Shown here in pieces: positions 3,522 through 64,000 of a stretch of DNA of 64,000 nt (position 1 is its first letter; every line of letters begins with the position of its first letter). The translations under genes and the position numbers were made by a program. A model generated the notes under the pieces. The model made no database searches. It was not told the DNA's origin and saw only the letters and a list, made by a program, of their open reading frames with translations. The stretch is taken from NCBI GenBank assembly GCA_016125005.1, contig WGMQ01000021.1, positions 8,312 to 72,311 of the forward strand. The letters are read 5' to 3'. This DNA comes from a bacterium. GTDB lineage: Bacteria; Sumerlaeota; Sumerlaeia; SLMS01.

Positions 3522-4136
3522 ATGTCCATGCGCATCACCCGCGTCTATACACGATCCGGCGACGACGGCCACACGGGCCTTGTCGGGGGTCAACGCGTTC
3601 CCAAGACCAACCCGCGGATTCAGGCCTACGGAACCACGGACGAACTGGCTTCCTTCATCGGCTGGGCACGGCAGGAACTGGCCGCAGAGCGCGATCTGCT
3701 CAAGGTTCCCGCGGATGCGGAACTGATCGACAAGTTGCTCGAGTACCTCGGCAACAAGCTCTTCACGCTGGGGGGGGACCTTGCCACCCGCATCGAGGAT
3801 CGCCACCCCATGATGCCCGTCATCGTCGATGAGGATATCGCCTGGCTGGAACAAGTGTGTGATCGCTACAACGAGCCGCTGCCGCCGCTGAAGGACTTTA
3901 TCCTCCCCGGTGGATCGCGCACCGCAGCGGCGCTTCACGTGGCCCGGACCATCGCCCGCCGGGCCGAACGCGAAGTCCTTCACCTGCAAGCGGTCGAGGA
4001 CACGGCAGGACTCCCGGGGCGCTATCTCAACCGGCTTTCCGATGCGCTTTTCGTGGTCGCCCGTTGGGTGAATCATCGGATGGGGATCGCAGAGGTGATC
4101 TGGCGCCGGGACTTGGCCGTCCCTCCCCTTCCCTGA
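3522..4136 (+). CDS. cob(I)yrinic acid a,c-diamide adenosyltransferase, PduO type
   Basis: N-terminal ITRVYTRSGDDGHTGL motif (TRxGDxGxT) followed by the helical PduO-type ATR bundle. Confidence 0.85.
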   Translation: MSMRITRVYTRSGDDGHTGLVGGQRVPKTNPRIQAYGTTDELASFIGWARQELAAERDLLKVPADAELIDKLLEYLGNKLFTLGGDLATRIEDRHPMMPVIVDEDIAWLEQVCDRYNEPLPPLKDFILPGGSRTAAALHVARTIARRAEREVLHLQAVEDTAGLPGRYLNRLSDALFVVARWVNHRMGIAEVIWRRDLAVPPLP

Positions 4137-4137
4137 C

Positions 4138-4156
4138 ATGCGCAATTCCTGCGCAT
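4138..4156. promoter_or_regulatory. perfect 7-5-7 palindrome ATGCGCA-attcc-TGCGCAT just after the PduO stop and upstream of the secretion operon
   Basis: Read directly from the sequence. No T-run follows, so it looks more like an operator or binding site than an intrinsic terminator. Confidence 0.35.
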
Positions 4157-4212
4157 ACCAACACCCTCCGTTTGCGCAGCCTCTTCCAGGCTCACCTCGA
4201 GAATCCGGGCTT

Positions 4213-4240
4213 TTGAGCAGTTTCGCGACTGTCATACAAT
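4213..4240 (+). promoter_or_regulatory. candidate sigma-70-like promoter of the secretion operon (-35 TTGAGC, 16-nt spacer, -10 TACAAT)
   Basis: TTGAGC at 4213-4218 and TACAAT at 4235-4240, about 70 nt upstream of the EF-hand gene ATG with its GGAGA Shine-Dalgarno. Confidence 0.3.
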
Positions 4241-4310
4241 CTGCTTAACCAGAAGGGTGAAATGCCGCAGCTCTTCAGGCGGTAAACTTCATCACTCGGA
4301 GAAAGCAGTC

Positions 4311-4970
4311 ATGAGGACATCGTGGACAATTCGGGCATGGGTTCTGGCTGTGGCCACCTCCCTAATCATCATCCCCGCCGTGGGTACCTGCCAGGACGAG
4401 GCGCCCGCAGAGGGCGGACGTCGCGGTCGTGGTAACTTCGATCCCGCTCAGATGTTTGCGCGCATGGACGCCAACGGCGACGGCACCATCGAGAAGTCCG
4501 AATTCCGCGGGCCGGAAGATCGCTTCGGCGATCTCGACAAGGACAAGGACGGCAAGGTCACCAAGGCTGAGTTCGACGAGGCGCGCGCCAGTTGGGGCAA
4601 CCGTCGCGAAGGCGGACGCGGTCCCGGTGGACCCGGTGGTTTTGGTGGATTGAATGCCGAGGCCATCATCGAGAAGCTTGGTCTCAGCACCGAGGAATCC
4701 GCGGTGCTCAAGCCCCGCATCGAGAAGCTGGTAACCATGGTCAACAGCGCGCGTCCCGGCCGCAATAACCAGATGCCCGAGATGGAGGCGCTCCGCACCA
4801 CCGTTGAGTCGGCGGACTCCACTCCCGAGCAGATCAGCAAGGCCGTCGCCGACCTGCGCAAGGCTCGCGAAGCACGCGCTGCTGAGCTGAAGACCGCCCG
4901 CGAGGAACTGCGCGAACTCCTCACCCCGAAGCAGGAAGCCATCCTCATCGTCGACGGCCTCCTCGACTAA
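4311..4970 (+). CDS. secreted EF-hand calcium-binding protein, first gene of the secretion operon
   Basis: Signal peptide; two canonical EF-hand loops DANGDGTIEKSEF and DKDKDGKVTKAEF. ATG at 4311 has a GGAGAAAG Shine-Dalgarno. Stops 9 nt before gspE. Confidence 0.65.
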   Translation: MRTSWTIRAWVLAVATSLIIIPAVGTCQDEAPAEGGRRGRGNFDPAQMFARMDANGDGTIEKSEFRGPEDRFGDLDKDKDGKVTKAEFDEARASWGNRREGGRGPGGPGGFGGLNAEAIIEKLGLSTEESAVLKPRIEKLVTMVNSARPGRNNQMPEMEALRTTVESADSTPEQISKAVADLRKAREARAAELKTAREELRELLTPKQEAILIVDGLLD

Positions 4971-4979
4971 CGGACAATC

Positions 4980-6692
4980 ATGACAAACGCGACCCAGCCA
5001 GCCAGCACCCCCAAGCTCGAAGAGCAGCCTATCCTCCAGCGCATGGTTGCCGCCCGCCAGATTCCCTCCGGCGACGCGGCCCAGTTCCTTGCCGCCTTTC
5101 GCGGTGAGGTGGCCACGGAGGAGGAGGTGCTGGCCTGGCTGGCCGCCGAGTACGATTGTCTATACAACGACCTGGAGGGCGCGGCGCCTGAGCGCGAGAC
5201 GCTCGCCCTCTTTCCTCCCCGCCTCCTGCTGAAGGAAGGCATTCTTCCCCTGCGCCGCGACGGCGAAGTGATCGAGGCCGCCACCAGTCGCCTTTTTGCG
5301 CCCGAGGCCTTCGACAGCCTTCGTGTCGTCACCGGCCTCACCATTCGCCCTGTCCTCTCCCCCACCGTCGCGATTCAGCGCGAGACGAAGAAGTGGCTGG
5401 GTGTCGGCGCCGATACCATCGGCACCATCGAGGAGGAAGAGGGTCTTCAGGTTGTCTCCGACGAGGGCGCCGAGGACGGCGACCTGGACGATGCCGCCGA
5501 GGATGCCTCTATCATCCGCTTCGTCAACCAGGTGCTGACCGACGCGGTAAACCTGCGTGCGTCCGACATCCATCTGGAACCGTTCGAGGACGAGCTGCGC
5601 CTACGCTATCGTATAGACGGCCTGCTTCAGGAAATTCCAGTCCCCGCCAGCCTCAAGCGATTCCAGCCCGCCATCGTTTCCCGCATCAAGATCCTCAGCC
5701 AGTTGGACATTGCCGAGAAGCGCCTCCCGCAGGACGGACGCATCAAGATCCGCCTGGAGCAGAAGGAAATCGACGTCCGCGTTTCGCTGATTCCCATGCT
5801 CTACGGCGAAGGCGTCGTCATGCGCCTCCTGCGCCAGGACCGTTCCATCGCGGGCCTCGGTGAAATGGGCATGGCACCGCGCGACGTGAGCGTCTTCCGC
5901 CAATTGCTCGATGTGCCCCACGGCATCGTGCTCGTCACCGGCCCGACCGGCAGCGGCAAGTCCACCACGCTCTATTCCGCCCTCAGCGAGATCAACGATC
6001 AGGTCCGCAAGATCATCACCATCGAGGACCCGGTCGAGTATCACATCAAGGGCGTGAACCAGATTCAGGTGAACGAGAAGACGGGCCTTACCTTCGCCCG
6101 CGGCCTCCGCTCGATCCTGCGTCACGATCCCGACGTGGTGCTGATCGGCGAAATCCGCGACAACGAGACGGCCCGCATCGCCGTGCAGGCGTCCCTCACG
6201 GGTCACTTGGTCTTTTCGACGCTGCATACCAACGACGCCCCCGGCGCCCCGACCCGCCTGATCGACATGGGGATCGAACCCTATCTCGTCGCCTCCTCCC
6301 TTGAAGGCATCATGGCCCAGCGCCTCGTCCGTGTCCTGTGTCGTTCTTGTCGCCGCGAGGACACCACTTCCGCAAGCCGTCTATACGCCCGCCAGATGGG
6401 CATTGCCGACAGTGCACGTCTATACGTACCCGAGGGCTGCGAGAAGTGCCGCCGCACCGGCTACGATGGACGACGTGGCATCTTTGAACTCATGCGCCTC
6501 GACGATTCGCTGCGCGAGATGATCCTCCATTCCCGTTCCTCCGTCGCGCTGCGTGATGCGGCGCGCCTGGCGGGAATGCGGACCCTTGCCGAAGACGGCA
6601 CACGCCTTGTGGGCGAAGGGGTCACATCCTTCGACGAAGTGCTTCGCGTGAGTCGCGTTGAGGGCAACGCGGCTAAGAACGAGGCTGGCTGA
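4980..6692 (+). CDS. gspE: type II secretion / type IV pilus assembly ATPase
   Basis: Walker A GPTGSGKST, Asp box, His box and a C-terminal tetracysteine (CRSC...CEKC) zinc motif; GspE/PilB family. Confidence 0.9.
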   Translation: MTNATQPASTPKLEEQPILQRMVAARQIPSGDAAQFLAAFRGEVATEEEVLAWLAAEYDCLYNDLEGAAPERETLALFPPRLLLKEGILPLRRDGEVIEAATSRLFAPEAFDSLRVVTGLTIRPVLSPTVAIQRETKKWLGVGADTIGTIEEEEGLQVVSDEGAEDGDLDDAAEDASIIRFVNQVLTDAVNLRASDIHLEPFEDELRLRYRIDGLLQEIPVPASLKRFQPAIVSRIKILSQLDIAEKRLPQDGRIKIRLEQKEIDVRVSLIPMLYGEGVVMRLLRQDRSIAGLGEMGMAPRDVSVFRQLLDVPHGIVLVTGPTGSGKSTTLYSALSEINDQVRKIITIEDPVEYHIKGVNQIQVNEKTGLTFARGLRSILRHDPDVVLIGEIRDNETARIAVQASLTGHLVFSTLHTNDAPGAPTRLIDMGIEPYLVASSLEGIMAQRLVRVLCRSCRREDTTSASRLYARQMGIADSARLYVPEGCEKCRRTGYDGRRGIFELMRLDDSLREMILHSRSSVALRDAARLAGMRTLAEDGTRLVGEGVTSFDEVLRVSRVEGNAAKNEAG

Positions 6693-7912
6693 TGGGCATG
6701 TACTCGTACAGGGCTGTCGGCCCCGCGGGGATGACCGAGGGCCAGATCGAAGCGGGAGGCCGCCAGGAGGCGCTTCGGCTCCTCGAAGGACGCGGCCTGC
6801 GTCCCATCCGTGTCGACGACAGCGTGGCACGCCCTGCGCAGGCGAGCGGCAGTGGTTGGAACCTGCTTCCCAGCCAGGTCACCGCCCGCGACCTCGAACG
6901 TTTCACACGCCAGCTTTCCAGCCTTCTCGCCGCGGGCGTTCCCCTGAGCCGCTGTCTTTCGATTTTGGGTCGCGACGGTTCCCGTCCCGCGGCCGTTGCC
7001 GCATGGCGCCAGCTCCGTGACATGGTGGTCGATGGCGTGGCGCTCGCCGATGCGATGGCGCGGCAGCCGACGGTCTTCCCGCGTGTCTATACAGCCATGG
7101 TTCGGGCCGGCGAGGCGGGTGGATTCCTCCCGCTCGTGCTCGGCCAGGTGGCTGATTTCCAGGCGCGCGACAAGGAACTGCGCTCGCGCCTTGTCTCCGC
7201 CATGACCTACCCGGCGGTCCTGCTGCTGCTCACCATCGCCGTGCTGATCTTCCTCATGACCTTCTTCATCCCGCGCTTTCAGGTCATGTTCGAGGGTCTC
7301 GGCGCGCCGCTCCCCGCGTTGACAAACGTCATCATCGCGGCGAGCGAGATCGTCCGCTCCTACGGCTTCATCGTGACCGGCGTACTCATCGTCGGCGTGG
7401 TTGCGGCACGGCAGTGGCTCGCGTCCGACGAAGGTCGCCGCGCCTGGCAATCACTTGTCCTCAAGATGCCGGTCTACGGCCCGCTTGCCGGTCGCCTGGC
7501 CGCCACGCGCTTCTGCCGCATGCTCGGCACGCTGACCAAGTCCGGTGTCGAGCTCATCGCCGCCCTGCAAATCGCCCGCGAATCGCTCGGCAATCAGATC
7601 CTCGCGGATGCCCTCACCACCGCCATCGAGCGCGTCCGCAAGGGCGAGTCACTGGCCAAGGGCCTCGCACTCTGCCCTGACCTTTTTCCCCCGACCATCA
7701 TCGAAATGATCGCCGTGGCGGAGGAGTCGGGCAATCTGGACACCGAATTGGTGCGCCTCGCCGAGGAATCGGAGAAGGAACTCGACGCACAACTTCGCCT
7801 CGCGGTCGCGCTCGCAGAACCGGCGCTTCTCTTCATCATGGCCTCGTTCATCGGGACGATCTTTGTCGGCATGGTCCTGCCGATTTTCACCATCCAAGAC
7901 TACATCAAGTAA
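6692..7912 (+). CDS. gspF: type II secretion inner-membrane platform protein
   Basis: 406 aa, duplicated GspF/PilC domain, three TM segments; the ATG overlaps the gspE TGA (TGATG). Confidence 0.9.
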   Translation: MGMYSYRAVGPAGMTEGQIEAGGRQEALRLLEGRGLRPIRVDDSVARPAQASGSGWNLLPSQVTARDLERFTRQLSSLLAAGVPLSRCLSILGRDGSRPAAVAAWRQLRDMVVDGVALADAMARQPTVFPRVYTAMVRAGEAGGFLPLVLGQVADFQARDKELRSRLVSAMTYPAVLLLLTIAVLIFLMTFFIPRFQVMFEGLGAPLPALTNVIIAASEIVRSYGFIVTGVLIVGVVAARQWLASDEGRRAWQSLVLKMPVYGPLAGRLAATRFCRMLGTLTKSGVELIAALQIARESLGNQILADALTTAIERVRKGESLAKGLALCPDLFPPTIIEMIAVAEESGNLDTELVRLAEESEKELDAQLRLAVALAEPALLFIMASFIGTIFVGMVLPIFTIQDYIK

Positions 7913-7934
7913 CCAAACAAAAGGAGCCTCACAC

Positions 7935-8360
7935 ATGATCCGCCAAGGAAGAAACTCACGCCGCCGCGGCTTCTCGCTCGTCGAGATGCTGCTGGTGCTC
8001 GTCATCCTCGCCACGCTGGCCGCCATCGTAATCCCGCGCTTCGCGGGCCGCAGCGAGCAGGCCAAGGTCACCGCCGCGGAGACGCAAATCACCAGCATCT
8101 CCACTGCCCTCGATTCCTTCGAGGTCGACAACGGGTTCTACCCGCCCTCCGGCGAGGGTCTCACCCAGCTGACCACGAAGCCCGACAGTGCGACCAACTG
8201 GCGGGGGCCGTACCTCAAGCAGGGCGTTCCCAACGATCCGTGGGGTGCCGCCTACGTCTACGAGTTCCCCGGCAAGAACAACGAGCAGGGGTATGACCTT
8301 TCGTCCCTGGGTCCCGACGGTCGCGCCGGCACCGACGACGACATCAAGAACTGGAAGTAA
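7935..8360 (+). CDS. gspG: major pseudopilin (prepilin-type N-terminal cleavage/methylation domain)
   Basis: AAGGAG Shine-Dalgarno 9 nt upstream; leader MIRQGRNSRRRG then FSLVEMLLVLVILATLAAIV with Glu at +5; C-terminal GspG-like core (NDPWG...Y). Confidence 0.85.
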   Translation: MIRQGRNSRRRGFSLVEMLLVLVILATLAAIVIPRFAGRSEQAKVTAAETQITSISTALDSFEVDNGFYPPSGEGLTQLTTKPDSATNWRGPYLKQGVPNDPWGAAYVYEFPGKNNEQGYDLSSLGPDGRAGTDDDIKNWK

Positions 8361-8369
8361 CCGACGGCC

Positions 8370-8873
8370 ATGACCTCGCTCCGCCAACAACGCTCGCGAT
8401 CGGGAGGCTTCACACTGCTGGAGCTGATGGTCGTGCTTGCGCTGCTGGCGCTGGCGGGGGCGCTGGTCGCACCCAACCTGAAGGGTCTCGCCCAGGGCCG
8501 CGGTCCCGAGGAGGAGTCCAGACGCCTCCTCGCTGCTCTGACCCACGCGCGGGACCTGGCGCGGAACAAGGGCGACCGCATCGTTTTCTGGGTGGCCGCC
8601 GACGGGAAAAGCTACGGTCTCCGCGAGACCCGTTCGGGTCGCGATGCATTTGTCTATACAGTTGGCGAGCGCCTTCGCGTGCAGGCCTTCGACGCAGAAT
8701 CGAAGGCAGTGGAGCAGCAGGAGGCGGACGCTTCCTTCTGGCCCGACGGCCTACCCGATGACGCGGCGACACCTCGGTTTCAGTTGCTGGAAAATGAGAC
8801 GGAAGTCGCCAACCTGACGCTCGACACCAACACACGCCGATACGTCCTGACGGTGGCCGCCAATGCGCCCTGA
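8370..8873 (+). CDS. minor pseudopilin, GspH-like
   Basis: Prepilin leader ...SGG|FTLLELMVVLALLAL with Glu+5; size and position after gspG fit GspH. Confidence 0.6.
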   Translation: MTSLRQQRSRSGGFTLLELMVVLALLALAGALVAPNLKGLAQGRGPEEESRRLLAALTHARDLARNKGDRIVFWVAADGKSYGLRETRSGRDAFVYTVGERLRVQAFDAESKAVEQQEADASFWPDGLPDDAATPRFQLLENETEVANLTLDTNTRRYVLTVAANAP

Positions 8874-9237
8874 TCGCGGACAGAACGCCATGACCTTCGC
8901 CGAGTTGCTCGCCGCCATGACCATCATCGCCATCGTGATGCCCGTCATGGTCGGCGCGGTCCTGTTTGCGAACCGGACCGCGGTGATGGGCTCGCGCCGT
9001 GCGGAGGCGGCGTGGCAGGCTGATCAACTCATGCAGGAGGCCATCGCCACGGGAACTTGGCAGGACGGCGACGAGGAAGGTGAACTCAGCAACGGCATGA
9101 CCTGGCGTCGGGAGACCGATGACTGGGATGTGGAGGCACTCTCCACCGTGACCGTGTCCGTCGACTATACGGTGCAGGGAACTGTCTATACAGAGTCCGT
9201 CGTGCGTGCTGTCCGGGTGCCGGAGGCAGAAGAATGA
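8863..9237 (+). CDS. minor pseudopilin, GspI-like
   Basis: Short leader MRPDRGQNA then MTFAELLAAMTIIAIV with Glu+5; the alternative start at 8890 is in the same frame. Overlaps the GspH-like gene by 11 nt. Confidence 0.55.
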   Translation: MRPDRGQNAMTFAELLAAMTIIAIVMPVMVGAVLFANRTAVMGSRRAEAAWQADQLMQEAIATGTWQDGDEEGELSNGMTWRRETDDWDVEALSTVTVSVDYTVQGTVYTESVVRAVRVPEAEE

Positions 9238-9905
9238 ACCGCCGCCGCGCCTTCACCTTGATTGAAGTCCTGATCTCGCTGGCGATTGCCGGTGTGTTGC
9301 TGGCTGCGGTCATCTCGGCCTTGATCGGTTCTATTCGCCTGCGCCGCACCGCCGAACGTCTGGAAACGGAATCAGAGCCCCTTGCCTGGTTCCGCTCCAC
9401 CGTCCGACGCGACTTCGCCAACGCCGTCGTTCCGTCCGGCATCCTTGCTGGCTCCTTCATCGTCACCTCGTCGGGTGAGGAGGAATCCTCCCGCGATCAC
9501 ATTTGGTTCTATACCACTGCGGGCGTCGTGACCGACGCGGCACCGTGGGGCGATGTGCGCAAGGTAGAGTATTTCCTCGATGAGGAGTCTCCTGCCGAGG
9601 GGGAGGAGGAGGCTTATCCTCTCATCCGCCGCGAGACGTTCAATCTCCTCTCCACCGTTGCCGACGAGACGACCTGGCGCGACACGGTGCTGGAGGCGAA
9701 GGCCACCGGCTTTTCCATCGAATGCAGTGACGGCGAGGAGTGGACTGAGTCCTGGGATTCCACTGTCGTGGAAAACGAGAATCCCACGGCAGTGCGCCTC
9801 ACTGTCTATACAGCAAGTGCTGAGCCGCGCGTCGTCGTGCAGGAGATCGTCACACAGCCCCGCCCCGTGGCCGCTGTGGCCGCTGCAGGTGGAGGCACGC
9901 CATGA
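9234..9905 (+). CDS. minor pseudopilin, GspJ-like
   Basis: Leader MNRRRA then FTLIEVLISLAIAGVLLA with Glu+5; 223 aa. Confidence 0.55.
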   Translation: MNRRRAFTLIEVLISLAIAGVLLAAVISALIGSIRLRRTAERLETESEPLAWFRSTVRRDFANAVVPSGILAGSFIVTSSGEEESSRDHIWFYTTAGVVTDAAPWGDVRKVEYFLDEESPAEGEEEAYPLIRRETFNLLSTVADETTWRDTVLEAKATGFSIECSDGEEWTESWDSTVVENENPTAVRLTVYTASAEPRVVVQEIVTQPRPVAAVAAAGGGTP

Positions 9906-11242
9906 GACTCGACCGCCGCGGCATCGTGTTCGTCGTCCTGCTGTGGGCTATCATGGCCCTAACAACCGTCGCCATCTACTTTGCCCATTCCTCGCGCCTT
10001 GTCTATCTCGCCAGCGAATCAGCCGCCGCAGGCTATCAGGCCGAGAATGCGATTTCCTCCGCCGTCGAGTATTTCCTCTATGCGATCCAGACGGAGGAGC
10101 CGGAAGGCAAGTATCTCGACCTGGAGACCGACGGCTACGAGGTGAGTCAAGTACCCCTCGGTGAGGCCCGGTTCTGGTTCCTCGGCTGGGATCGCAACGC
10201 CCTAACCGAGCCATCATCACCTGTCTATACAGCGGTCGACGAAGCAGCGAAGCTCAACATCAACACCGCCGATCAGGAAATGCTCGCAGCGCTCCCGGGC
10301 ATGACCAGCGAGTTGGCTGCGGCCATCGTCGATTGGCGTGATACCGACGAGGAACTTTCCTCGGAAGGCGCAGAGTCGGCCGACTATCTCACGCTCGACA
10401 CCCCCTACGCCGCAAAGAACTCGGAGTTCGAAAGCATCGACGAAATCCGCCTCCTCCACGGCGCCGATCCGGAGATCCTCTACGGCGAGGACCGGAACAT
10501 GAACGGCGTGCTCGACCAGAACGAAAACGACGGTGACGCCTCCTGGCCGCCCGACAACGAGGACGGTATCCTCCAGACGGGCATCATGCGCTACATCACG
10601 GTTTTTTCGCGCGAACCCAACACGAAGAGCGACGGATCGAACAAGGTGAACCTGCGCGGCCAAAGTGCCCGCAGCGACTTGCAGACGCTGGTCAGCGAGC
10701 GACTCGGCGGCGATGTCTTCAACCAGATAATCGCCAACGCGGGGAACAACCTGGGACGACCTGACAGCGTCCTTGCCTTCTATCTTTCCAGCGGTCTTTC
10801 CGAGGCCCAGTTCCGCGAGATCGAGAACGACCTCACCGTCTCGGAGGGCGAGTATCGCATCGGTGCCGTGAACGTGGTGACGGCGCCGCTCGCGGTGCTT
10901 GCGTGCCTGCCGGGAATCACCGGCGAGAAGGCAGAGGAGATCGTCAATGCGCGCCTCAGCCTCACCGACGAGCAGCGCGAGAGCGTGCTCTGGCTTACCA
11001 CGATTCTTGACCCCGACACCTGCCGATTGGTCGGACCGCACATCACGGCGCAGAGTTGGCAGTACGGTCTGGACATCGTCGCCGTGGGTCGCAACGGGCG
11101 CGGCTTCCGCCGCGAATTCGTCGTGGTTGATGTCGAGGACCCGCCGACCGTGATTTTCCGCCGCGATCGATCCCGCGAGGGCTGGCCGCTCGGCGATGAA
11201 GAATTGGAATCCCAAACCGAAGGAGTCGCTTCCAGCCGATGA
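9902..11242 (+). CDS. gspK: minor pseudopilin GspK
   Basis: N-terminal TM without Glu+5 (typical of GspK); KLNINTADQEMLAALPGM...AAIVDWRD helix-hairpin-helix/SAM-like GspK signature. Confidence 0.75.
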   Translation: MRLDRRGIVFVVLLWAIMALTTVAIYFAHSSRLVYLASESAAAGYQAENAISSAVEYFLYAIQTEEPEGKYLDLETDGYEVSQVPLGEARFWFLGWDRNALTEPSSPVYTAVDEAAKLNINTADQEMLAALPGMTSELAAAIVDWRDTDEELSSEGAESADYLTLDTPYAAKNSEFESIDEIRLLHGADPEILYGEDRNMNGVLDQNENDGDASWPPDNEDGILQTGIMRYITVFSREPNTKSDGSNKVNLRGQSARSDLQTLVSERLGGDVFNQIIANAGNNLGRPDSVLAFYLSSGLSEAQFREIENDLTVSEGEYRIGAVNVVTAPLAVLACLPGITGEKAEEIVNARLSLTDEQRESVLWLTTILDPDTCRLVGPHITAQSWQYGLDIVAVGRNGRGFRREFVVVDVEDPPTVIFRRDRSREGWPLGDEELESQTEGVASSR

Positions 11243-12633
11243 TTTCCTTGTCCCAAGCGACAATCCGGGAACGCACGCGCAGGTTGCTGCTGTGCGAGTT
11301 CCGTCCCGATGGCGCGATGCTGTGTGAGTACGCGGTTGGCTCGGCGGGAGCGCGCCAGACCGCGGCGCTTTCCGCCGCCATCCCCGGCGATCCCTGCGGT
11401 CCTGACGCGGCCACGTTCGGCGCCCAGCTTCGCCTGCTCATGCAGGAGCACAAGCTTCGCGGCGGCGCGTGCCTCGTGCTGGTCCCGCTCTCGTGGGTCG
11501 TGACGCACAGCTTCGAAACGCCCGCGCTCTCAGACGCGGACCTGCAATCCATGATCACCCTTGAGGCCGAGAAGGTTTTCCCCTTCGGGCCGTCGGAGCA
11601 GGTCCTCGGCAACTCCGTCATCCGTCCTTCGGAATCGGCAGCCGTCGTCACGCTGGTGGCCATGCAGGCGACACGGCTCGATGCACTGGAGCGTGCGCTT
11701 CGCGGTGCGGGCCTCGGCCCTGTGGCCATCGCCGTCCAAGGCTTTGACGACAGCACCGAAGCCGCGAGTGCGCGCCTCCTGACGGGCCCTTCCGGCCTGC
11801 TGCTCTCGGTGAGCCAGAGCGGTTCCGTCGTGGCGCTGCGCCACCTTTGCGACGCGACGGCGCTCGGCGACCTGGCCGAGCCAGCGCGCCGCGCTGATCT
11901 CGTGCGCGAGGTGAAGATGTCCCTCCGCGCGCTTCCGCAGGCCCTGGGTGCCGCACCGACTGCCATCGTGCTCGAATGGGATCAGGGGCTTCAGGAAAGC
12001 CAGATCGCACCGCTCGCCGAACAGTTCCGCAAAAGTGGCTTCGACCTGCAAAGCCGCCGGGTGACCGAAGGCGAGCAGCGCGTCCGCCTGATCGAGCGCT
12101 GGGCGAAGGAGCATCGCCTCGCGGTGAACCTGCTTCGCCCCCGCCTGTCGCGCTGGGAACGCACCTTCCGCGCGATGAACCGCCGCGGCCTACTGGTCCG
12201 TGCCGTGGCGGGTGCGGGCACCCTGGTGGCCCTCGTGGCGCTGCTGTTCCTCTACCGTGGCTGGCGTGCCTCCTCGCTCGAATCACAGTGGAGCCGCATG
12301 GAATCAGACGTCGCCGTGGTCGAGGGGCTCGAACAGGACATTCGCGCATGGCGGGCCTGGTACAACCCGGCCGTTCCCACGCTCGACCTGATGAAGTCGC
12401 TGACCGAGGCATTCCCCTCCGGTGGCGATGTCTATACAAAGACGCTTCAGATTCGTGACCAACGTGAAGTGATCTGCACCGGCACGGCCAAACGACGGGA
12501 GGATTTTGTGAAGTTTCAGGAGAAACTCGGTGCCACGGCGGGAGTCAGTGGATTGCAGGTCCAGCAGCTTCGCGGCGAGGAGCCCGTGCAGTTCAGCCTT
12601 ACGTTCCGCTGGGCAGGAAGGGGTGGCGCATGA
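11239..12633 (+). CDS. GspL-like assembly protein (cytoplasmic actin-like domain, TM, periplasmic domain; PilM/PilN-like fusion)
   Basis: 464 aa; one central TM (LLVRAVAGAGTLVALVALLFLY); position and topology match GspL. Confidence 0.5.
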   Translation: MISLSQATIRERTRRLLLCEFRPDGAMLCEYAVGSAGARQTAALSAAIPGDPCGPDAATFGAQLRLLMQEHKLRGGACLVLVPLSWVVTHSFETPALSDADLQSMITLEAEKVFPFGPSEQVLGNSVIRPSESAAVVTLVAMQATRLDALERALRGAGLGPVAIAVQGFDDSTEAASARLLTGPSGLLLSVSQSGSVVALRHLCDATALGDLAEPARRADLVREVKMSLRALPQALGAAPTAIVLEWDQGLQESQIAPLAEQFRKSGFDLQSRRVTEGEQRVRLIERWAKEHRLAVNLLRPRLSRWERTFRAMNRRGLLVRAVAGAGTLVALVALLFLYRGWRASSLESQWSRMESDVAVVEGLEQDIRAWRAWYNPAVPTLDLMKSLTEAFPSGGDVYTKTLQIRDQREVICTGTAKRREDFVKFQEKLGATAGVSGLQVQQLRGEEPVQFSLTFRWAGRGGA

Positions 12634-13163
12634 GCAACGATGCACGCAGGAAGCTCCTGATTGTCCTGGCGGGTTGCGGCGTCGGCCTCTTCCTGCTGGA
12701 TGCGGCAGTGCTCCGTCCGCTGGGCAATGCCTGGCAAAGTCAGGGGGAGCGCATCGCTACGGGCAGCCAGCAGGTGGAGCGCGGGAATGCCCTGCTTGAT
12801 CGACGCGATTCCACGAGCGGTCGTTGGAAGAGCATGAAGGACGGCTCGCTCCCGAAGGATACCGCCAAGGCCGAGTCGCTTGTGCTGAGTGCCATCGGCA
12901 ATTGGGCCGGACGTAGTGGGCTCACGGTGTCGAATATTCGCCCGCGCTGGGTCGTGATGAAGAACGTGGGCGACCGGTTCGAAGTCCGCCTGTCCGCCGA
13001 TGGCGACCTTGAGCGAGTCACGCGGTTCATCTATGAGTTGGAGACCGATAGTCTGCCGCTCGCGGTGGAGGAAACGCTCATCCGGTCGAAGACTGACTCT
13101 GGCGACGACCTGAGTCTTGAACTGCGCTTTTCGGCGCTTCGGATCGGGGGAACCGGCGCATGA
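12630..13163 (+). CDS. GspM/PilO-like bitopic inner-membrane protein
   Basis: 177 aa with an N-terminal TM (LLIVLAGCGVGLFLL) then a periplasmic domain; operon position. Confidence 0.45.
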   Translation: MSNDARRKLLIVLAGCGVGLFLLDAAVLRPLGNAWQSQGERIATGSQQVERGNALLDRRDSTSGRWKSMKDGSLPKDTAKAESLVLSAIGNWAGRSGLTVSNIRPRWVVMKNVGDRFEVRLSADGDLERVTRFIYELETDSLPLAVEETLIRSKTDSGDDLSLELRFSALRIGGTGA

Positions 13164-13696
13164 GACTCGTTGCTGTTGGTTGCCTTATCCTGGTCGCAGC
13201 CGTCGCGCTGGTCGGTGCGCAGGAATCCCGCAAGCCCGCGTCCGCGCGGTCCTTCTCCGACTACAACATCCTGCTCCAGCGGAACATCTTCAGCGCCAAG
13301 CGTCGCGCACCGGTCGTGGGCACACGCTCGACTGGGCCTGTCTCCACGGCGCCCACCATCGAGACGGTGACGCTCGTTGGTGTGGTGCTCCGTGACACGG
13401 GAAACATCGCGATCTTCGCCTCTGCGCTCAGTTCCGAGAGCGGTTCTCGAAACCCCGGTGAATCGGTGGCAGGGTTTCGTATAGACGAGATCAGGACGAC
13501 CTCCATCACCATGACGCGTGATGAGAAGAAGCTGGAATGGACGGTGGGGGGAATCCTCCGCCGTATAGACGGTGGCGATTGGTACCTCCCCGAGGCACCA
13601 GGCGCCGCCAGCGACATCACCGCCGATCCCGCCGCCGAGGCGGCAATCCTGAAACGTATGCGCGCCCGCCGGGCGCAGGAGGCCAGCAATGAGTAA
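13160..13696 (+). CDS. GspC/PilP-like secretin-interacting periplasmic protein (putative)
   Basis: 178 aa, N-terminal TM/signal anchor, then a predicted beta-rich domain; sits directly before the secretin genes. Confidence 0.4.
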   Translation: MRLVAVGCLILVAAVALVGAQESRKPASARSFSDYNILLQRNIFSAKRRAPVVGTRSTGPVSTAPTIETVTLVGVVLRDTGNIAIFASALSSESGSRNPGESVAGFRIDEIRTTSITMTRDEKKLEWTVGGILRRIDGGDWYLPEAPGAASDITADPAAEAAILKRMRARRAQEASNE

Positions 13697-15410
13697 GTAC
13701 CGACGTCTTTCCGCCCTGATCCTCTCCGGTGCGCTGGTGTTCCCACTCCTTGCGCAACCGGATCAAGCCCCGGAGCCGACACCGGAAGAGACCCCGGCAC
13801 CCACGCCGGAGCCTACGCCTGAACCGACTCCAGAGCCGACGCCGGAACTCATCCTCCTGGCACCCGTCGAGCCCGGTCCGCCCGATGAATCAGGCGCACC
13901 CCCTGCCGATATGGAGGGCGCTCCACCCGCAGGGATCGACACACCGGAGATGAATGGTTCCGCGATGGACTTCGAGGCCCAGATGCGCCTTCGTCGCCGC
14001 GACTCCGAGATGGAAGGCTCATCGTCCGGCTCTTCGCAGACCTCCGCCGAACCGACGCCGATTCCCAAGCTCATCAGCCTCAACTTCAAAGGCGCGCCCC
14101 TCAATACGGTGCTCGACTACCTCGCGGAGAGCACCGGCTACTCGGTCGTGCGCGGCACCACGGTCGAAGGCACTGTCGACGTCATCAGTCCGACCGCGCT
14201 CTCCACAGAGGATGCGTTGGAACTCGTCACCACGGTCCTCTACCAGCGCGGCTACGCGGCGCTTCGCGTCGGCAAGACGCTGACCATCGTGAAGCGCGAT
14301 GACGCCAGCAAGCGCAACGTCCCGGTCCGTCAGGGGGCCGATCCCGAGGAGATTCCCCTCAGTGACCAGATCGTGACGCAGATCATCCCGGTGCGCTACA
14401 GCCGCGCCAGCGAACTGGTCGACAACATCAAACCCCTCCTGCCCGAGAACTCGATCATCACGGCAAACCAGGGGAGCAACGCCATCATCCTGACCGACTC
14501 GCAGATGAACGTGCGTCGCGTGGTCGAGATCATCTCGGCGCTCGACAAGTCCTTCTCCGAGATCACGACGGTGCGCGCCTTCACGCTTCAGTATGCCGAC
14601 GCGAAGGCGACCGCGACGCTCATCACGACCCTCTTCCAATCGAACACCGCGACAGGGCAGAACGGACGCAACAACGGCGGTACCCAGTTCCGCGGCCCGG
14701 GCGGCCCCTTCGGCGGGAACCGCGGGGGCGACAGCTCCAGCTCCGATTCGTCCGCCGCGGCGCTTCAGGCTTCCTCTCGCATCGCCGCCGGTGCGGACGA
14801 GCGAACCAACACGCTGGTCGTGGCGGCGCCTGGAGCCCTGATGCCTGCCATCGAGGAGCTCCTCACGCAGATCGACAAGTCGACGGACGTCCTCACCGAG
14901 GTACGCGTCTTCCCCCTCAAGTACGCTGACGCCCAGGAGATGGCCACGCTGGTGACCAGTGTGTTCGCCCCGAGCAGTACAACAACCACCAGCGGCAGCA
15001 ATAACAACAATCGGGGCCAGCGCTTCTTCCAGTTCGGTGGCTTTGGCGGTTTCCGGGGACAAGGTGGCAACAGCCAGCAGACAGCGGGTCAGAGTGAGCG
15101 CCAACAGGCTGAGGATTCCGTCGTCGCCGTCGCGGACACGCGCACCAACTCGATCGTCGTGAGCGCCGTCGGAAGCGTGCTGGACCAGGTCGAGCAGGTC
15201 GTCAAGGGTCTCGACCGCGATCCATCCGGCACGAAGAAGGTCCACGTCTACGAGTTGAAGAACGCGCGCCCCGAGGAGGTCTCGGCCCTCATCGAGGAGA
15301 TGTTTGGCACCTCGACCTCGTCGTCGACCACGACGCGATCCTCGAACAATAACACGCGCTCGAACAACACGGGGACGCGGAACAATAATAACCGGAACAC
15401 GGGGAACTGA
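13689..15410 (+). CDS. secretin N-terminal module (N0-N1-N2 plus the first half of N3), separate ORF with its own signal peptide
   Basis: Signal peptide, then a (PEPT)n linker, an N0 domain (LISLNFKGAPLNTVLDYLAESTGYSVV) and repeated secretin N-domain beta-alpha units (IIPVRYSRASELVDNIKPLL; VRAFTLQYADAKATATLITTLF; VRVFPLKYADAQEMATLVTSVF; VHVYELKNARPEEVSALIEEMF). Each unit is interrupted by a Gly/Asn/Ser-rich low-complexity loop. The ORF stops at TGA 15408-15410. Confidence 0.7.
   Translation: MSKYRRLSALILSGALVFPLLAQPDQAPEPTPEETPAPTPEPTPEPTPEPTPELILLAPVEPGPPDESGAPPADMEGAPPAGIDTPEMNGSAMDFEAQMRLRRRDSEMEGSSSGSSQTSAEPTPIPKLISLNFKGAPLNTVLDYLAESTGYSVVRGTTVEGTVDVISPTALSTEDALELVTTVLYQRGYAALRVGKTLTIVKRDDASKRNVPVRQGADPEEIPLSDQIVTQIIPVRYSRASELVDNIKPLLPENSIITANQGSNAIILTDSQMNVRRVVEIISALDKSFSEITTVRAFTLQYADAKATATLITTLFQSNTATGQNGRNNGGTQFRGPGGPFGGNRGGDSSSSDSSAAALQASSRIAAGADERTNTLVVAAPGALMPAIEELLTQIDKSTDVLTEVRVFPLKYADAQEMATLVTSVFAPSSTTTTSGSNNNNRGQRFFQFGGFGGFRGQGGNSQQTAGQSERQQAEDSVVAVADTRTNSIVVSAVGSVLDQVEQVVKGLDRDPSGTKKVHVYELKNARPEEVSALIEEMFGTSTSSSTTTRSSNNNTRSNNTGTRNNNNRNTGN
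13776..13850 (+). repeat. tandem Pro-Glu-Pro-Thr coding repeat (PEPTPEETPAPTPEPTPEPTPEPTPE) in the secretin N-module linker
   Basis: Direct reading of the gagccgac / ccggag(c)c triplet-based repeats. Confidence 0.6.
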
Positions 15411-15418
15411 GCGCGATC

Positions 15419-16498: not shown

Positions 16499-16522
16499 CG
16501 AGACGGAGCGAGGCATCGTCGC

Positions 16523-28058: not shown

Positions 28059-28166
28059 CGATAGCACGGAAAAAAAGGTCCTGTTTGGGCGGATGAATCG
28101 CGCGGGGCGGTGAGGATTATTCGCGCCCGAGCACACCATGTTGTCAAGGACGGCATGGGGTGTTTC

Positions 28167-30598: not shown

Positions 30599-30670
30599 GA
30601 GTTTTCCCTTTCTTGCGTGGAGAGTGTCCCAGGGGGGCGATGAGGCCCCGCTGTTAGATCCTGAGTTTGG

Positions 30671-33805: not shown

Positions 33806-33835
33806 TTTCCCTCCGTCCAGAAAGGTAGCCCAGGC

Positions 33836-47930: not shown

Positions 47931-47985
47931 CGGCTAACAGCCACGCCAGGCATGACCACGGAGACCCGCCCACAGAGGGCACTTT

Positions 47986-52882: not shown

Positions 52883-52913
52883 CCCCCGCCAGCGATGGCG
52901 GGGGATTTTTTCG
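52883..52913 (+). terminator. rho-independent terminator after the radical SAM gene (possibly bidirectional)
   Basis: CCCCCGCC-agcgat-GGCGGGGG stem followed by ATTTTTTCG; a GTCTATAC motif copy follows immediately. Confidence 0.75.
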
Positions 52914-52931
52914 TCTATACAGGCAACAGCT

Positions 52932-57791: not shown

Positions 57792-57828
57792 TTCACAATA
57801 GCATCAGGAAACACAACGGGCGGCGCAT

Positions 57829-61052: not shown

Positions 61053-61183
61053 TACCGCCAGGTCATTGCGTGGGGACATCATCCTGCGAAGAGCCTTGCC
61101 CAGTCTCTGGTTGCGAGTAGTGTCCGTCGCGAAGTGGCGCCGGATTTGCTCCCGGTGCTGTCAGCTTCTGCCGCGGAGAAATC

Positions 61184-61690
61184 ATGCATCCGATCCTGGC
61201 CCTACGAGCCTTCTTCCGAGTCCTGTTCCAAGGCGAACCGCCCGTCTCGATGCCGGTGGCTCCGGCGCCTGCTGTGGCCCCCCCGGCACCAGCACCGGCG
61301 TTCGCCCATTCGACCGAGCCCGCCATCCAACTATTGGCACTGCTCCAGAAGGAAGGCCGACTGATGGATTTCCTGCGCGAGGACATCGGTTCATACAAGG
61401 ACGCGGAGATCGGCGCGGCGGTGCGTGACATCCATCGGGGATGTCGTTCAGTGCTGGAGCGCCATGCCACACTGCGCGCCGTGGTGACCCAGAAGGAAGG
61501 GCAGTCGATCGACGTGCCCGCGGGCTTTGATCCATCGCAGATTGCCCTTCAGGGGAACGTGAGCGGCGCCGGTCCCTTTCGCGGCACGGTGGCTCATCCG
61601 GGGTGGTATGTGGAGGCGCTGAAGTTGCCAACGGTTCCTCCCGGAGCGGACCCCAAGGTGGTGGCGCCCGCCCAGGTGGAGGTGCGCTGA
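61184..61690 (+). CDS. DUF2760-like protein (Hsp70-neighbourhood family)
   Basis: 168 aa, N-terminal hydrophobic helix, a Pro/Ala linker, then a conserved core (LLALLQKEGRLMDFLREDIGSYKDAEIGAAVRDIHRGC); directly precedes and overlaps an Hsp70-like gene. Confidence 0.5.
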   Translation: MHPILALRAFFRVLFQGEPPVSMPVAPAPAVAPPAPAPAFAHSTEPAIQLLALLQKEGRLMDFLREDIGSYKDAEIGAAVRDIHRGCRSVLERHATLRAVVTQKEGQSIDVPAGFDPSQIALQGNVSGAGPFRGTVAHPGWYVEALKLPTVPPGADPKVVAPAQVEVR

Positions 61691-63552
61691 TGAGCAGTCG
61701 CTTCTCCATCGGCATCGACCTTGGGACAACCAACACCGCCTTGGCCTTCGTGGACACGGTGATCAGCCCGGACTCGCCGGACGAGGCGATGGTGGCAACC
61801 TTTCCCGTGGAGCAGGTGGTCGCCGCAGGGGCCGTCGACCAGCGCGAGACGCTTCCGAGCGCGGTGTATGTGGCGAGCGGGACCGAGGTTCCCGCCGGAT
61901 CGTTGAACCTCCCGTGGCGCGCGGAGGAGAAGGTCGTGGTGGGGCACTTTGCCCGCGAATTGGGTGCGCGCATCCCGACGCGCTTCATCCATTCGAGCAA
62001 GAGTTGGCTTTGCCACGGCGGCGTCGACCGCGAGGCGCCGATCCTGCCGCCCGGATCGCCGGAGGAGGATGCGCGGCGCTCCCCCGCCACCGTGGCCACG
62101 CTGATCCTCAAGCATCTGGCGGAAGCCTGGGACAATACGATGGCAGCGGAGGATCCATCGCTGGCGCTGGCCAATCAGGAGATCACGCTCTGCGTCCCGG
62201 CGAGCTTCGATGCGGGTGCGAGGAACCTCACGGTGGCGGCCGCAGAGCGCGCGGGCTTCCGACACCTGCATCTGCTGGAGGAACCGCAGGCCGCCTTTCA
62301 CAGCTGGATCGAGTCGGCAGGGCGGCAGTGGCGGTCACAGGTGCGTACCGGCGACTTGGTGTTGGTCGTGGACGTGGGCGGCGGCACCTCCGACTTCTCG
62401 TTGATCGGCGTGACGGAAAAGGATGGCGAGTTGGAGCTACGCCGCGTGGCCGTGGGCGACCACATCCTGCTTGGCGGCGACAACATGGACCTGGCGCTGG
62501 CGTACAGCGTGGCCGGGCGCCTGGAGAAGGAACGCGACAAGAAGCTGGACGCGTGGCAGATGATCGCGCTCGTGCAGCAATGCCGCACGGCGAAGGAGGC
62601 GCTGCTGAGCGACCCGTCCCTCGAATCTGCACCCATCGCGATTCTGGGCCGCGGCACATCCGTAATCGGCGGCACGATTCGCACGGAGCTGCCGCGTGCG
62701 GGGCTGGACGAGTTCCTGCTCGACGGCTTCTTTCCGCTCTGTGCCCCAACCGACCAGCCCGCGCGGGCGCGCCGCTCCGGCTTCCGCGAGACAGGGCTCC
62801 CCTACGCAACGGACCCGGCCATCACGCGTCATCTGGCCGCATTCCTTGTCAAGAACGGGCCGAGCGTTGCAGAGGTTTTCCCGGACCGCACACCAGCGCC
62901 GGGGCAGCCGATCCTTCCGACGGCGATCCTCTTCAACGGCGGTGTCTTCAAGGCTCAGCCACTGGCCGACCGCATCATCCAAACACTTGCCGCGTGGTCC
63001 CGCAGCGTCGGCGGCGAGGCCCCTCGTGTGCTGAACCACAGCGATCTGGACCTGGCGGTGGCACGCGGTGCCGCGTACCTCGGTCTGGCGCGACGCGGCC
63101 GCGGCGTCCGCATTCGCGGCGGCAGCGCCCGCAGCTACTACATCGGCATCGAGACCGCCGCCCCCGCCGTTCCCGGCATGGCGCCTCCGCTCAAGGCCAT
63201 GTGCGTGGTTCCCTACGGCATGGAAGAAGGCACCGCGGCGCAGATTTCAGGCCGCGAAATCGACCTCTGCATCTGGACGGGTGAGCCCGCCGCCTTCCGA
63301 TTCCTTTCCAGCACGACCCGTCGCCATGATCAGCCGGGACAGGTCTTCGATGTGGATGGTGAGGACTTCGAGGAGCACAACGCCATCGAGACCACGCTTC
63401 CCTCCGTAGGCGGAAGCGAGGGCGAGGCGGTCGAGGTGGACCTTCGGTCGCACCTGACCGAGATCGGCGTCCTCAATCTGTCTTGCGTGGATCGGCAATC
63501 GGGAAAAGAATACCTTCTCGAGTTCAACGTGCGGCAGCAATCCGCGGACTAA
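61690..63552 (+). CDS. non-canonical Hsp70/actin-fold ATPase (HscC/YegD-like)
   Basis: Start at MSSRFSIGIDLGTTNTALAFV (overlapping the upstream TGA). Hsp70 nucleotide-binding signatures (IGIDLGTTN; VDVGGGTSDFSLI; LLGGDNMD), but a divergent C-terminal region. Confidence 0.8.
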   Translation: MSSRFSIGIDLGTTNTALAFVDTVISPDSPDEAMVATFPVEQVVAAGAVDQRETLPSAVYVASGTEVPAGSLNLPWRAEEKVVVGHFARELGARIPTRFIHSSKSWLCHGGVDREAPILPPGSPEEDARRSPATVATLILKHLAEAWDNTMAAEDPSLALANQEITLCVPASFDAGARNLTVAAAERAGFRHLHLLEEPQAAFHSWIESAGRQWRSQVRTGDLVLVVDVGGGTSDFSLIGVTEKDGELELRRVAVGDHILLGGDNMDLALAYSVAGRLEKERDKKLDAWQMIALVQQCRTAKEALLSDPSLESAPIAILGRGTSVIGGTIRTELPRAGLDEFLLDGFFPLCAPTDQPARARRSGFRETGLPYATDPAITRHLAAFLVKNGPSVAEVFPDRTPAPGQPILPTAILFNGGVFKAQPLADRIIQTLAAWSRSVGGEAPRVLNHSDLDLAVARGAAYLGLARRGRGVRIRGGSARSYYIGIETAAPAVPGMAPPLKAMCVVPYGMEEGTAAQISGREIDLCIWTGEPAAFRFLSSTTRRHDQPGQVFDVDGEDFEEHNAIETTLPSVGGSEGEAVEVDLRSHLTEIGVLNLSCVDRQSGKEYLLEFNVRQQSAD

Positions 63553-63585
63553 CCCCGCACGGGCCGTTCGATCCGGGAGGTCATT

Positions 63586-64000
63586 ATGGCAGTCTCGTTG
63601 CTGGCGGGCCGCTCCGGTTCCGGCAAGACACACCACATCCTTGAGGAAGTCTGCGCTGCCTGCGCAGCCGATCCCTTCGGCGCGCCGATCTTCCTGCTGG
63701 TTCCTGAACAGGCCTCCTACCAGACCGAGAAGGCTCTGCTGACCCACGGCCCCATTCGTGGCTACACCCGGGTGCAGGTGCTGAGCTTTGCCCGTCTTGC
63801 CCAGTTTGTCTATACGACGAACCCGGCACCGACACTGCCGGTCCTCACCAACCAACACCGCGACTTCCTGGTTCTTCTCCTCCTTCATCGCTGGCGTCGC
63901 GAACGACCGGGCACGTTCCTGGACACGCCCGGCATCGAGGACTCCCTCACGCAACTGGTCGCAGAGGCGCGGCATCAGGCCGTTGAAGCCACCGATCTGC
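63586..64000 (+). CDS. addB: ATP-dependent helicase/nuclease subunit B (AddB/RexB), N-terminal part
   Basis: GGGAGG Shine-Dalgarno; MAVSLLAGRSGSGKTHHILEEV...APIFLLVPEQASYQTEKALL closely parallels the AddB N-terminus (…FLVGRSGSGKT…IIFLVPDQMTF…). Runs off the window end. Confidence 0.7.
   Translation, partial: MAVSLLAGRSGSGKTHHILEEVCAACAADPFGAPIFLLVPEQASYQTEKALLTHGPIRGYTRVQVLSFARLAQFVYTTNPAPTLPVLTNQHRDFLVLLLLHRWRRERPGTFLDTPGIEDSLTQLVAEARHQAVEATDL

Follow-up and report, generated by a model that had tools for sequence, protein, structure and literature searches.

An exact 10-bp DNA word in a Sumerlaeota type II secretion operon and in phages: a possible array of protein-binding sites

Short DNA words that recur exactly, at about one copy per kilobase, are known either as genome-wide signals, such as uptake sequences, Chi and HIP1, or as phage-wide repressor sites, the stoperators. 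We know of no described array of this kind that is confined to one cellular operon. Here we describe the word GTCTATAC, which is concentrated in the type II secretion genes gspE to gspN of a 64-kb stretch of DNA from an uncultured Sumerlaeota bacterium (assembly GCA_016125005.1, contig WGMQ01000021.1, positions 8,312 to 72,311) and which is also abundant in phage contigs. This whole stretch, hereafter called the window, is the host DNA that was analysed. The excess is genuine and far from random; what recurs is a 10-bp word in duplex DNA, YGTCTATACR, confined to blocks and shared with phages.

In the cluster A mycobacteriophages, which offer the closest parallel, elongation is stopped at more than 20 asymmetric 13-mers that are dispersed over the genome and bound by the L5 gp71-type repressor, a monomeric, two-domain protein; these short stoperators lie outside promoters, silence whole gene blocks and have a lineage-restricted specificity (PMC9283540). 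Elongation is likewise blocked, independently of the reading frame, by repressors bound to intragenic roadblock operators, such as the CcpA cre boxes in open reading frames (ORFs), which are single sites (PMC3463425). With respect to the word itself, the operators of the HutC subfamily of GntR regulators (NagR/DasR dre, GmuR, CelR and BguR) have an identical core, GTCTATAC or GTATAGAC. The HutC operator consensus is GT(A/C)TA(T/G)AC. Sites available for comparison are the CelR operator AAATGTCTATACATTTAA of C. difficile (bioRxiv 10.1101/2021.06.26.450058), the GmuR operator tAAATGTaTAGACAttTa of Bacillales (PMC3585215), the NagR site agatGTATAGACttgt of B. thuringiensis (PMC6141813) and the predicted site TGGTCTATACCA of MSMEG_0650 from M. 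smegmatis (PMC2018728). The native NagR sites are all non-palindromic (PMC4333415).

A duplex-DNA word in the secretion operon

GTCTATAC is the most over-represented 8-mer of the window. It is present in 17 exact copies, 13 on the + strand and 4 on the − strand, versus an expectation of 0.17 from dinucleotide shuffles of the window (maximum 1), 0.42 after shuffling of codons within genes and 0.64 from an order-3 Markov model. When synonymous codons were resampled with the proteins kept, 1.67 copies were expected (maximum 5 in 300 trials), versus 16 coding copies observed. The recount agrees in number and strand with an initial annotation of this DNA, which had already claimed a large excess; one start, given there as 8653, is actually at 8652. 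All 17 copies carry a pyrimidine on their 5′ side and a purine on their 3′ side, as do the 13 copies of the related locus L089 described below (30 of 30 sites), and the unit is therefore the 10-mer YGTCTATACR. Beyond these flanks (position ±5) no base is conserved among the 30 sites. The 10-mer is palindromic but for one pair, with half-sites YGTCT and YGTAT. This asymmetry is real: the palindromic versions GTCTAGAC and GTATATAC have 0 and 0 occurrences in the window and 1 and 0 in L089. TGTCTATACA alone occurs 7 times in the window. One-mismatch variants of GTCTATAC number 12, rather than the five listed initially (one of them at 22272, not 22271), and are not enriched over the ~9.7 expected. 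The variant GACTATAC at 9163–9170 lies 21 nt upstream of the exact gspI copy and is also found in gspE of L089 (1405–1412). A literature search on the bare word gave primer noise only.

The copies are extremely clustered in the window, which, like the second carrier lineage and the phage copies reported below, is new with respect to the initial annotation. Thirteen of the 17 lie within positions 3543–13570 (~10 kb) and four in the remaining 54 kb (binomial P = 4e-8). In 20,000 scan-statistic simulations a count of 13 was never attained. Twelve are located in a word-rich block of type II secretion genes on the + strand, gspE-F-G-H-I-J-K-L-M-N (4980–13696), at ~1.4 copies per kb, and the thirteenth lies just upstream, in pduO. 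In total 16 copies are intragenic, 12 of them in this one operon. The genes downstream of gspE–gspN for a split secretin, a histidine kinase and a sigma-54 regulator (13689–19431) contain zero copies. The ~40 kb of housekeeping genes in the window contain none or single copies; nuoBCD, hflX and the XPB-like helicase gene are without any. The gene names given earlier are borne out by Pfam, with matches to a PduO-type adenosyltransferase, GspE/F/G/H/J/K, L/M-like proteins, pullulanase, a DUF6596 sigma factor and the AddB N-terminus.

Ten copies, and not 13 as counted before, read GTC-TAT-ACR (Val-Tyr-Thr, VYT) in the sense frame of their gene, and 10 of the 11 VYT tripeptides of the window are spelled with GTCTATAC. 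The pduO copy (3543–3550, +; sense, phase 0) encodes residues 8–10, within a conserved I/VYT motif. In the secretion block, all on the + strand, a copy at 7085–7092 encodes a conserved VYT of gspF, and further copies are found in a gspH-like pseudopilin gene (8652–8659; VYT in place of TYQ/THQ), a gspI-like gene (9184–9191; VYT), gspJ (9804–9811; VYT), gspK (10223–10230; VYT in place of V-F/Y-G, including a mostly conserved Gly) and a gspL-like gene (12430–12437; VYT in place of VTA/VSA). Three copies in gspE are read in sense phase 1 as xGT-CTA-TAC. Two of these, CGT-CTA-TAC (Arg-Leu-Tyr, RLY) at 6379–6386 and 6418–6425 (both +), had been recognized before; the third, TGT-CTA-TAC (Cys-Leu-Tyr, CLY) at 5158–5165 (+), had been missed, and orthologues have CRF, CAF or LGF at this position. 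The earlier frame assignment also agrees for three antisense copies, read as CGT-ATA-GAC (Arg-Ile-Asp, RID), and one intergenic copy. The antisense copies are at 5611–5618 (−) in gspE, at a conserved RID, and at 13479–13486 and 13563–13570 (both −) in a gspN-like ORF (13160–13696), where the former gives RID in place of TIE and the latter spells RID with synonymous rare codons. Outside the cluster, isolated copies occur in the pullulanase gene (22620–22627, +; VYT), where the copy is not conserved among relatives, in the sense strand of the minus-strand DUF6596 sigma-factor gene (44895–44902, −) and in the N-terminal domain of addB (63808–63815, +), while the sole intergenic copy (52913–52920, +) follows a terminator hairpin at a distance of 1 nt.

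The word is a signal in double-stranded DNA, and neither a peptide nor an mRNA signal. According to a codon-usage model of the window, 0.29 copies are expected in sense phase 0, 0.021 in sense phase 1 and 0.020 in antisense phase 1, versus 10, 3 and 3 observed. L089 has 4 antisense copies versus 0.007 expected, which brings the antisense copies of the two secretion clusters to 7 versus ~0.04. Besides the three frames of the window (VYT, xLY and antisense RID), antisense phase 2 (xYR) and sense phase 2 (xSI) are used in L089 and in the phages, and each frame used lies 30–150-fold above its codon-usage expectation, which bears out the earlier claim that the constraint acts on the nucleic-acid word and not on one peptide. 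The same model predicts a sense:antisense ratio of ~9:1, since a stop codon or codons that are very rare would be required in the antisense frames; the two clusters together show 22:7. The transcribed strand is thus not preferred, and the orientation skew noted initially carries no information beyond codon accessibility. Where the residues are conserved, the word was introduced solely through synonymous rare codons (CGT-ATA-GAC, CTA, AGA), as in the RID of GspE, where CGC-ATC-GAC is changed to CGT-ATA-GAC. In orthologues that lack the word, ordinary codons specify identical or similar residues, in agreement with the rare-codon usage noted initially; the VYT of GspF, for example, is spelled GTC-TAC-ACG in the related cluster L087. 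At variable positions the amino acids themselves are changed, and TYQ, TYS, VYP, VFG and VTA have all become VYT, even at the expense of the mostly conserved Gly in GspK.

Carriers of the word among relatives and phages

The nearest relatives of the window are Candidatus Sumerlaeota/Sumerlaeia genomes, with a GspE identity of only ~73–76%, and a metagenome scan for relatives of the window gave distant ones only. The word is not enriched in 80 GspE loci of species-representative genomes, and the syntenic Sumerlaeota secretion clusters L001, L087, L088, L091, L092 and L093 have zero exact copies. A second carrier is L089 (Logan SRR35364711; 10.4 kb, GC 69%), with 13 exact copies in its secretion cluster, all flanked by Y and R. 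The organism is known from these 10.4 kb; L090 (JGI sample 3300044940) represents the same strain. Two possibly related loci from the same samples, L096 and L097, have 1 copy in 12.7 kb and a different GC content, and may belong to another organism.

Only three sites of the window are shared with L089 at orthologous positions, namely the GspE RID (5611–5618), the GspF VYT (7085–7092) and the GspI VYT (9184–9191); in addition, L089 has a copy in another frame 2 nt away from the gspE copy at 6418–6425. About 20 sites are lineage-specific. The L089 cluster is as dense in the word as the secretion operon of the window although most sites differ, and the density is therefore maintained under a turnover of positions. 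A GspE+F+K+L tree places the window beside its nearest relative, the word-free L001, followed by L087, with L089 at the base, and the two carriers are therefore not sisters. Conservation of the word at orthologous positions, which the initial annotation had proposed to look for, is thus found for the three sites common to L089 and not for the six word-free clusters.

The word-free L087 contains 7 one-mismatch variants versus 1.7 expected from dinucleotide shuffles, among them those at 12136 and 14893 (and 12256 and 19438). Two of the variants are orthologous to window copies, GTCTACAC at the GspF VYT and GTCTATCC at the GspJ position, where L087 has VYP. The L087 variants may be decayed ancestral copies or pre-adapted sites.

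Scanning IMG/VR for two closely spaced copies of the word yielded several GC-rich contigs with many copies. In two phage contigs the density is ~0.7–1.4 copies per kb. Phage A (IMGVR_UViG_3300045922_000220; 18.5 kb, GC 65%) encodes a terminase, portal, scaffold, capsid, primase-helicase, helicase, Sak4-like protein and RusA, and contains 27 copies, 22 in locus L220 and 5 elsewhere on the contig. Six of the 27 are located in short intergenic gaps, where tandem pairs occur, and most but not all of the 27 have the Y and R flanks. The 22 copies of L220 occupy five reading frames on both strands as well as short intergenic gaps, and the 18 inside genes comprise 12 sense and 6 antisense copies. Three tandem copies, 21–24 nt apart, are present at L220 2382–2434, in the C-terminal part of the Sak4-like ORF, of which the frame is uncertain. 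Primase relatives of phage A (≤63% identity) do not carry the word.

Prophage B (IMGVR_UViG_3300044941_000536; 47.9 kb, GC 67%, of which 30.8 kb were read) belongs to the JGI sample series that also yielded L090 and L096. It encodes an integrase, a tail-morphogenesis protein (Phage_tail_S) and a 908-aa protein taken by eye as the tape measure. In the 30.8 kb there are 15 copies, 14 of which lie within ~13 kb of structural genes; 5.4 kb to one side of these genes and the final 8.5 kb to the other contain zero copies. The word-free side also encodes a 138-aa protein (~27921–28337; L403 4235–4648) that consists of two near-identical HTH_17 (excisionase/MerR-like) repeats and thus has the appearance of a single-chain pseudo-dimer. 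The word-free flank further encodes a restriction-modification enzyme of Type ISP (~29682–34383, end of L403; >1,560 aa), with an Mrr-like nuclease, helicase, coupler, N6-methyltransferase and specificity domain. The tetranucleotide usage of both phage contigs correlates with that of Sumerlaeota loci at r = 0.74–0.88, versus 0.3–0.65 for Verrucomicrobia loci. Together with the sample origin of prophage B, this points to Sumerlaeota as hosts.

In three further GC-rich viral contigs, L343, L386 and L359, longer palindromes, such as GGTGTCTATACACC and TGTCTATACACGAC, are built around the word. They occur in clusters at L343 3102–3132, 6468–6499 and 8283–8313, L386 673–749 and L359 4144–4199; GGTGTCTATACACC is present three times in 70 bp of L386, and pairs are 23–24 bp apart in L343. 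In their arrangement in pairs or triplets these sites resemble ordinary phage operators.

Possible readers of the word and rival explanations

The word is exact, acts at the DNA level irrespective of orientation and frame, is confined to blocks, restricted to certain lineages, shifts in position and is present in phages. We infer a protein as its reader, the family of that protein and the silencing of transcription by its binding. In the reading that we prefer, at a probability of roughly 0.45, the copies form arrays of sites for one duplex-binding protein, which are kept at a raised density in particular transcription blocks so that a whole block can be blocked or coated. YGTCTATACR would be the recognition site of one sequence-specific double-stranded DNA-binding protein. 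Given a quasi-palindrome with half-sites YGTCT and YGTAT, the binder would be dimeric or a pseudo-dimer of two domains; HutC/GntR-type regulators and tandem helix-turn-helix proteins are possible families. Selection would maintain about one site per 0.7–1 kb in the blocks concerned, i.e. the phage genomes and the host type II secretion operon, and the protein, whenever present, would bind all along such a block and, as a roadblock or a coat, silence its transcription. As the word is found in phages, is absent from their relatives and is patchy among hosts, the binder would be mobile and probably phage-borne, or at least phage-associated, and the host operon would have been drawn into its network. 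The only binder candidate in the phages is the tandem HTH_17 protein of prophage B, a pseudo-dimer that could, by its repeat structure, read a quasi-palindrome with two slightly different half-sites. Among the candidates listed in the initial annotation a regulatory-protein site fits best, and the DNA-uptake-like word that it also named stays a live rival.

Phage A resembles the stoperator phages in having 27 copies of one asymmetric site in 18.5 kb, with tandem pairs in short intergenic gaps, and prophage B has 15 in 30.8 kb. The L5 stoperators, however, are 13-mers, mostly intergenic and strictly co-oriented with transcription, whereas the word described here is a 10-bp quasi-palindrome that is mostly located in genes, in either orientation (12:6 in L220 and 22:7 in the secretion clusters), is 2–3 times denser and is also present in a host operon. 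The CcpA cre boxes in ORFs act as single sites, in contrast to the arrays of about a dozen sites found here. With respect to the HutC-type operators, GTCTATAC fits the GT-M-TA-K-AC core exactly and is the same as the cores of CelR, GmuR and B. thuringiensis NagR; the CelR and GmuR operators also share the T...A flanks with the word, and native HutC-type sites are typically non-palindromic. Unlike the word, of which only 10 bp are conserved, HutC/GntR operators comprise 14–20 bp with conserved arms, number one or two at each promoter and vary in sequence among the members of a regulon, whereas here ~13 exact copies are found per operon, intragenic and none at a promoter. The likeness to HutC operators is therefore one of resemblance and not of membership. 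The feature may be described as a stoperator-like array of sites with a HutC-type core that belongs to neither family, since defining features of each were looked for and not found here.

Several observations weigh against arrays of sites for one binding protein. No binder was identified: there is no GntR/UTRA regulator gene in the window or in the phage fragments that were read, nor any other obvious binder gene within the window, and neither the window nor phage A encodes a homologue of the tandem HTH_17 protein from prophage B. The sites are exact, with no excess of one-mismatch variants in the window, whereas the sites of a regulon are normally degenerate. Among all GTNTANAC words only GTCTATAC is enriched, and the palindromic versions GTCTAGAC and GTATATAC, although about as codon-accessible as the non-VYT frames, are almost unused; such sharp recognition is more typical of uptake sequences or restriction-type recognition. 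The region upstream of gspE and all promoters of the secretion operon are free of copies, the only intergenic copy of the window sits between convergent genes, and the sites are not oriented and are mostly intragenic, unlike the L5 stoperators. In addition, L089 was found through a GspE search, so that its richness is no proof of secretion-gene specificity, which accordingly rests on the window; the host evidence spans 64 kb only.

A more specific form of this proposal, which we consider doubtful, is that a phage repressor word has been written ~13 times into a host secretion operon, apparently independently in at least two non-sister lineages and at the cost of rare codons and amino acids, so that a phage protein would switch off the whole type II secretion and pseudopilus apparatus. 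This could serve, for example, receptor shut-down or superinfection exclusion in lysogens, with the host operon wired into the immunity network of the prophage.

The strongest rival, in our judgement unlikely, is a DNA-uptake-sequence-like, genome-wide 'self' word (~1 per kb) of a donor Sumerlaeota lineage, driven by biased uptake and recombination and also carried by the phages of that lineage, with the blocks in the window and in prophage B as mosaic imports. Uptake words such as the DUS of Neisseria and the USS of Pasteurellaceae are, like the word here, exact 9- to 12-mers at ~1 per kb in both orientations. They occupy tolerated frames in genes, cost amino acids at variable positions, exist as lineage 'dialects' and are also found in resident phages. 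The exact 10-mer without an excess of one-off variants in the window, its presence in either orientation and in every tolerated frame, with altered residues where the proteins are variable, its density and dialect-like patchiness, the copies in phages and the copy that abuts a terminator all fit such a word. The block borders inside the operon and inside the prophage are as recombination tracts would give, and the richness of L089, a locus found via GspE, may be genome-wide. Yet DUS and USS are genome-wide and enriched in core genes, whereas 13 of the 17 copies of the window fall in 10 kb and most core genes in the 64 kb, such as nuoBCD, hflX, the XPB helicase gene and others, lack the word. 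No phylogenetic break with respect to L001 and L087 is seen across the gspN/gspD border of the word-rich block, of which the synonymous codon usage is no outlier among 10-kb blocks (G = 64, range 33–160). These results also led us to reject a recent import of the gspE–N block from a diverged lineage; an import from a donor very close to the recipient may have occurred. Furthermore, symmetric flanks around a quasi-palindrome are not known from uptake sequences, genes for competence were not observed, type II secretion is not known for DNA uptake, and the agreement with the HutC operator core would have arisen by chance. We know of no competence in the phylum Sumerlaeota.

A methylation- or restriction-linked word, fixed from near-cognate sequence by a methyltransferase or an attached repair bias, in the manner of HIP1, would explain the restriction-enzyme-like exactness of recognition and, as restriction-modification systems are mobile, the patchy spread; prophage B is adjoined by a Type ISP enzyme, and the closest pullulanase homologue has a Type I system as its neighbour. 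HIP1 (GCGATCGC) of cyanobacteria is also a hugely over-represented, mostly coding 8-mer that imposes a tripeptide, but it is a perfect, GC-rich palindrome with a genome-wide distribution. Repair bias converts single-mismatch neighbours only and can produce neither a 30–150-fold excess nor multi-base rewrites, and it would act genome-wide and not in 10-kb blocks. Moreover, Type ISP, Type I and Type III sites are shorter or bipartite, phages normally avoid restriction targets and here accumulate the word, and the window has no methyltransferase gene, which makes this explanation improbable. Still less probable is a Chi-like signal for the AddAB helicase-nuclease that protects phage DNA and selected regions. 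It would agree with addB at the end of the window, with the overall window density of 1 per 3.8 kb, which is Chi-like, and with the accumulation of Chi in phages that lack nuclease inhibitors, but strand polarity is not seen beyond codon effects and the orientation in phage A is mixed, so that the Chi- or KOPS-like polarity suggested at first is disfavoured. The symmetric Y/R flanks imply recognition of the duplex rather than of a single strand, and the copies are extremely clustered instead of being distributed throughout the core genome. An element that acts in the mRNA of the secretion operon, i.e. a rare-codon pause, small-RNA seed or endoribonuclease site, is the least probable of all and close to refuted. 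Ten of the 13 copies of the cluster are on the sense strand and ten window copies share the frame GTC-TAT-ACR, but this sense bias is no larger than codon accessibility predicts. Antisense copies, of which the two clusters have seven, are enriched more than 100-fold (3 versus 0.02 in the window, 4 versus 0.007 in L089), and phage A uses all five possible frames as well as intergenic DNA; the RNA-level signals considered in the initial annotation are disfavoured accordingly.

Other candidates were rejected. Local duplication or a repeat family is incompatible with the unrelated flanks of the copies, as the initial annotation had also argued. The word is similar to the mosaic end of Tn5 less 3 bp, but an assembly or sequencing artefact, or a remnant of an adaptor, does not agree with copies that are in frame, without indels and at conserved residues (RID in GspE, VYT in GspF), nor with the recurrence of the pattern in independent NCBI, Logan, JGI and IMG/VR assemblies. 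Transposon or excision footprints would have changed the length with respect to orthologues, which is not seen. For −10, extended −10, ECF or sigma-54 promoter elements no second conserved element was found at any distance and a promoter scan was negative at the sites. Shufflon-type recombination sites do not fit with only 10 conserved bp and hits in essential genes. A VYT motif at the peptide level is contradicted by the other frames and strands that carry the word, and a secretion regulon that includes the pullulanase gene by the lack of conservation of its copy in relatives.

If the binding-array proposal is correct, a 9-kb operon would be silenced without a promoter operator, and a host secretion system would be linked directly to phage regulation in a phylum without a cultured model. 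If instead the uptake explanation holds, the word would belong to the first uptake-sequence-like system outside Proteobacteria. In either case it is a cheap marker for joining phages and hosts in metagenomes.

Neighbouring genes and unrelated repeats

In the window the secretin GspD is encoded by two ORFs, one for N0 and Secretin_N (13689–15410) and one for the secretin core (15419–16498). The same split is present in L087 (18811–21437), L091 (10486–13129), L092 (12874–15500) and L093 (18031–20567), and its occurrence in the window and four related Sumerlaeota clusters indicates a conserved split and not a frameshift artefact. An EF-hand calcium-binding gene, with weak Pfam support in some cases, lies directly upstream of gspE in five clusters: the window (4257–4970), L087 (9251–9892), L089 (502–1188), L091 (793–1386) and L092 (3299–3805). 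In L089 this gene and the secretion cluster are directly preceded by the C-terminus of an AraC-family regulator (1–297), of which the window has no counterpart. At 46134–50754 of the window an XPB/ERCC3-like helicase gene is followed by a gene for a 922-aa Helicase_C_3 protein, which may form a helicase-partner pair.

The closest homologue of the pullulanase (69% identity) is adjoined by a Type I restriction-modification system with HsdM and HsdS (L094 8121–10768; L095 7706–10353), on a contig without a copy of the word. In Verrucomicrobia and Binatia, the over-represented 8-mers of loci L066, L006 and L027 derive from tandem or REP-like intergenic repeats near secretion clusters, which are unrelated and not analogous to the word. 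They comprise tandem arrays of the heptamer CATTCGT, REP-like palindromes CCCTCTCC...GGAGAGGG and tandem arrays of CATGTAAC, and are located at L066 7104–7174, 13808–13830 and 14417–14440, L006 2850–4610, and L027 9903–9927 and 13754–13777.

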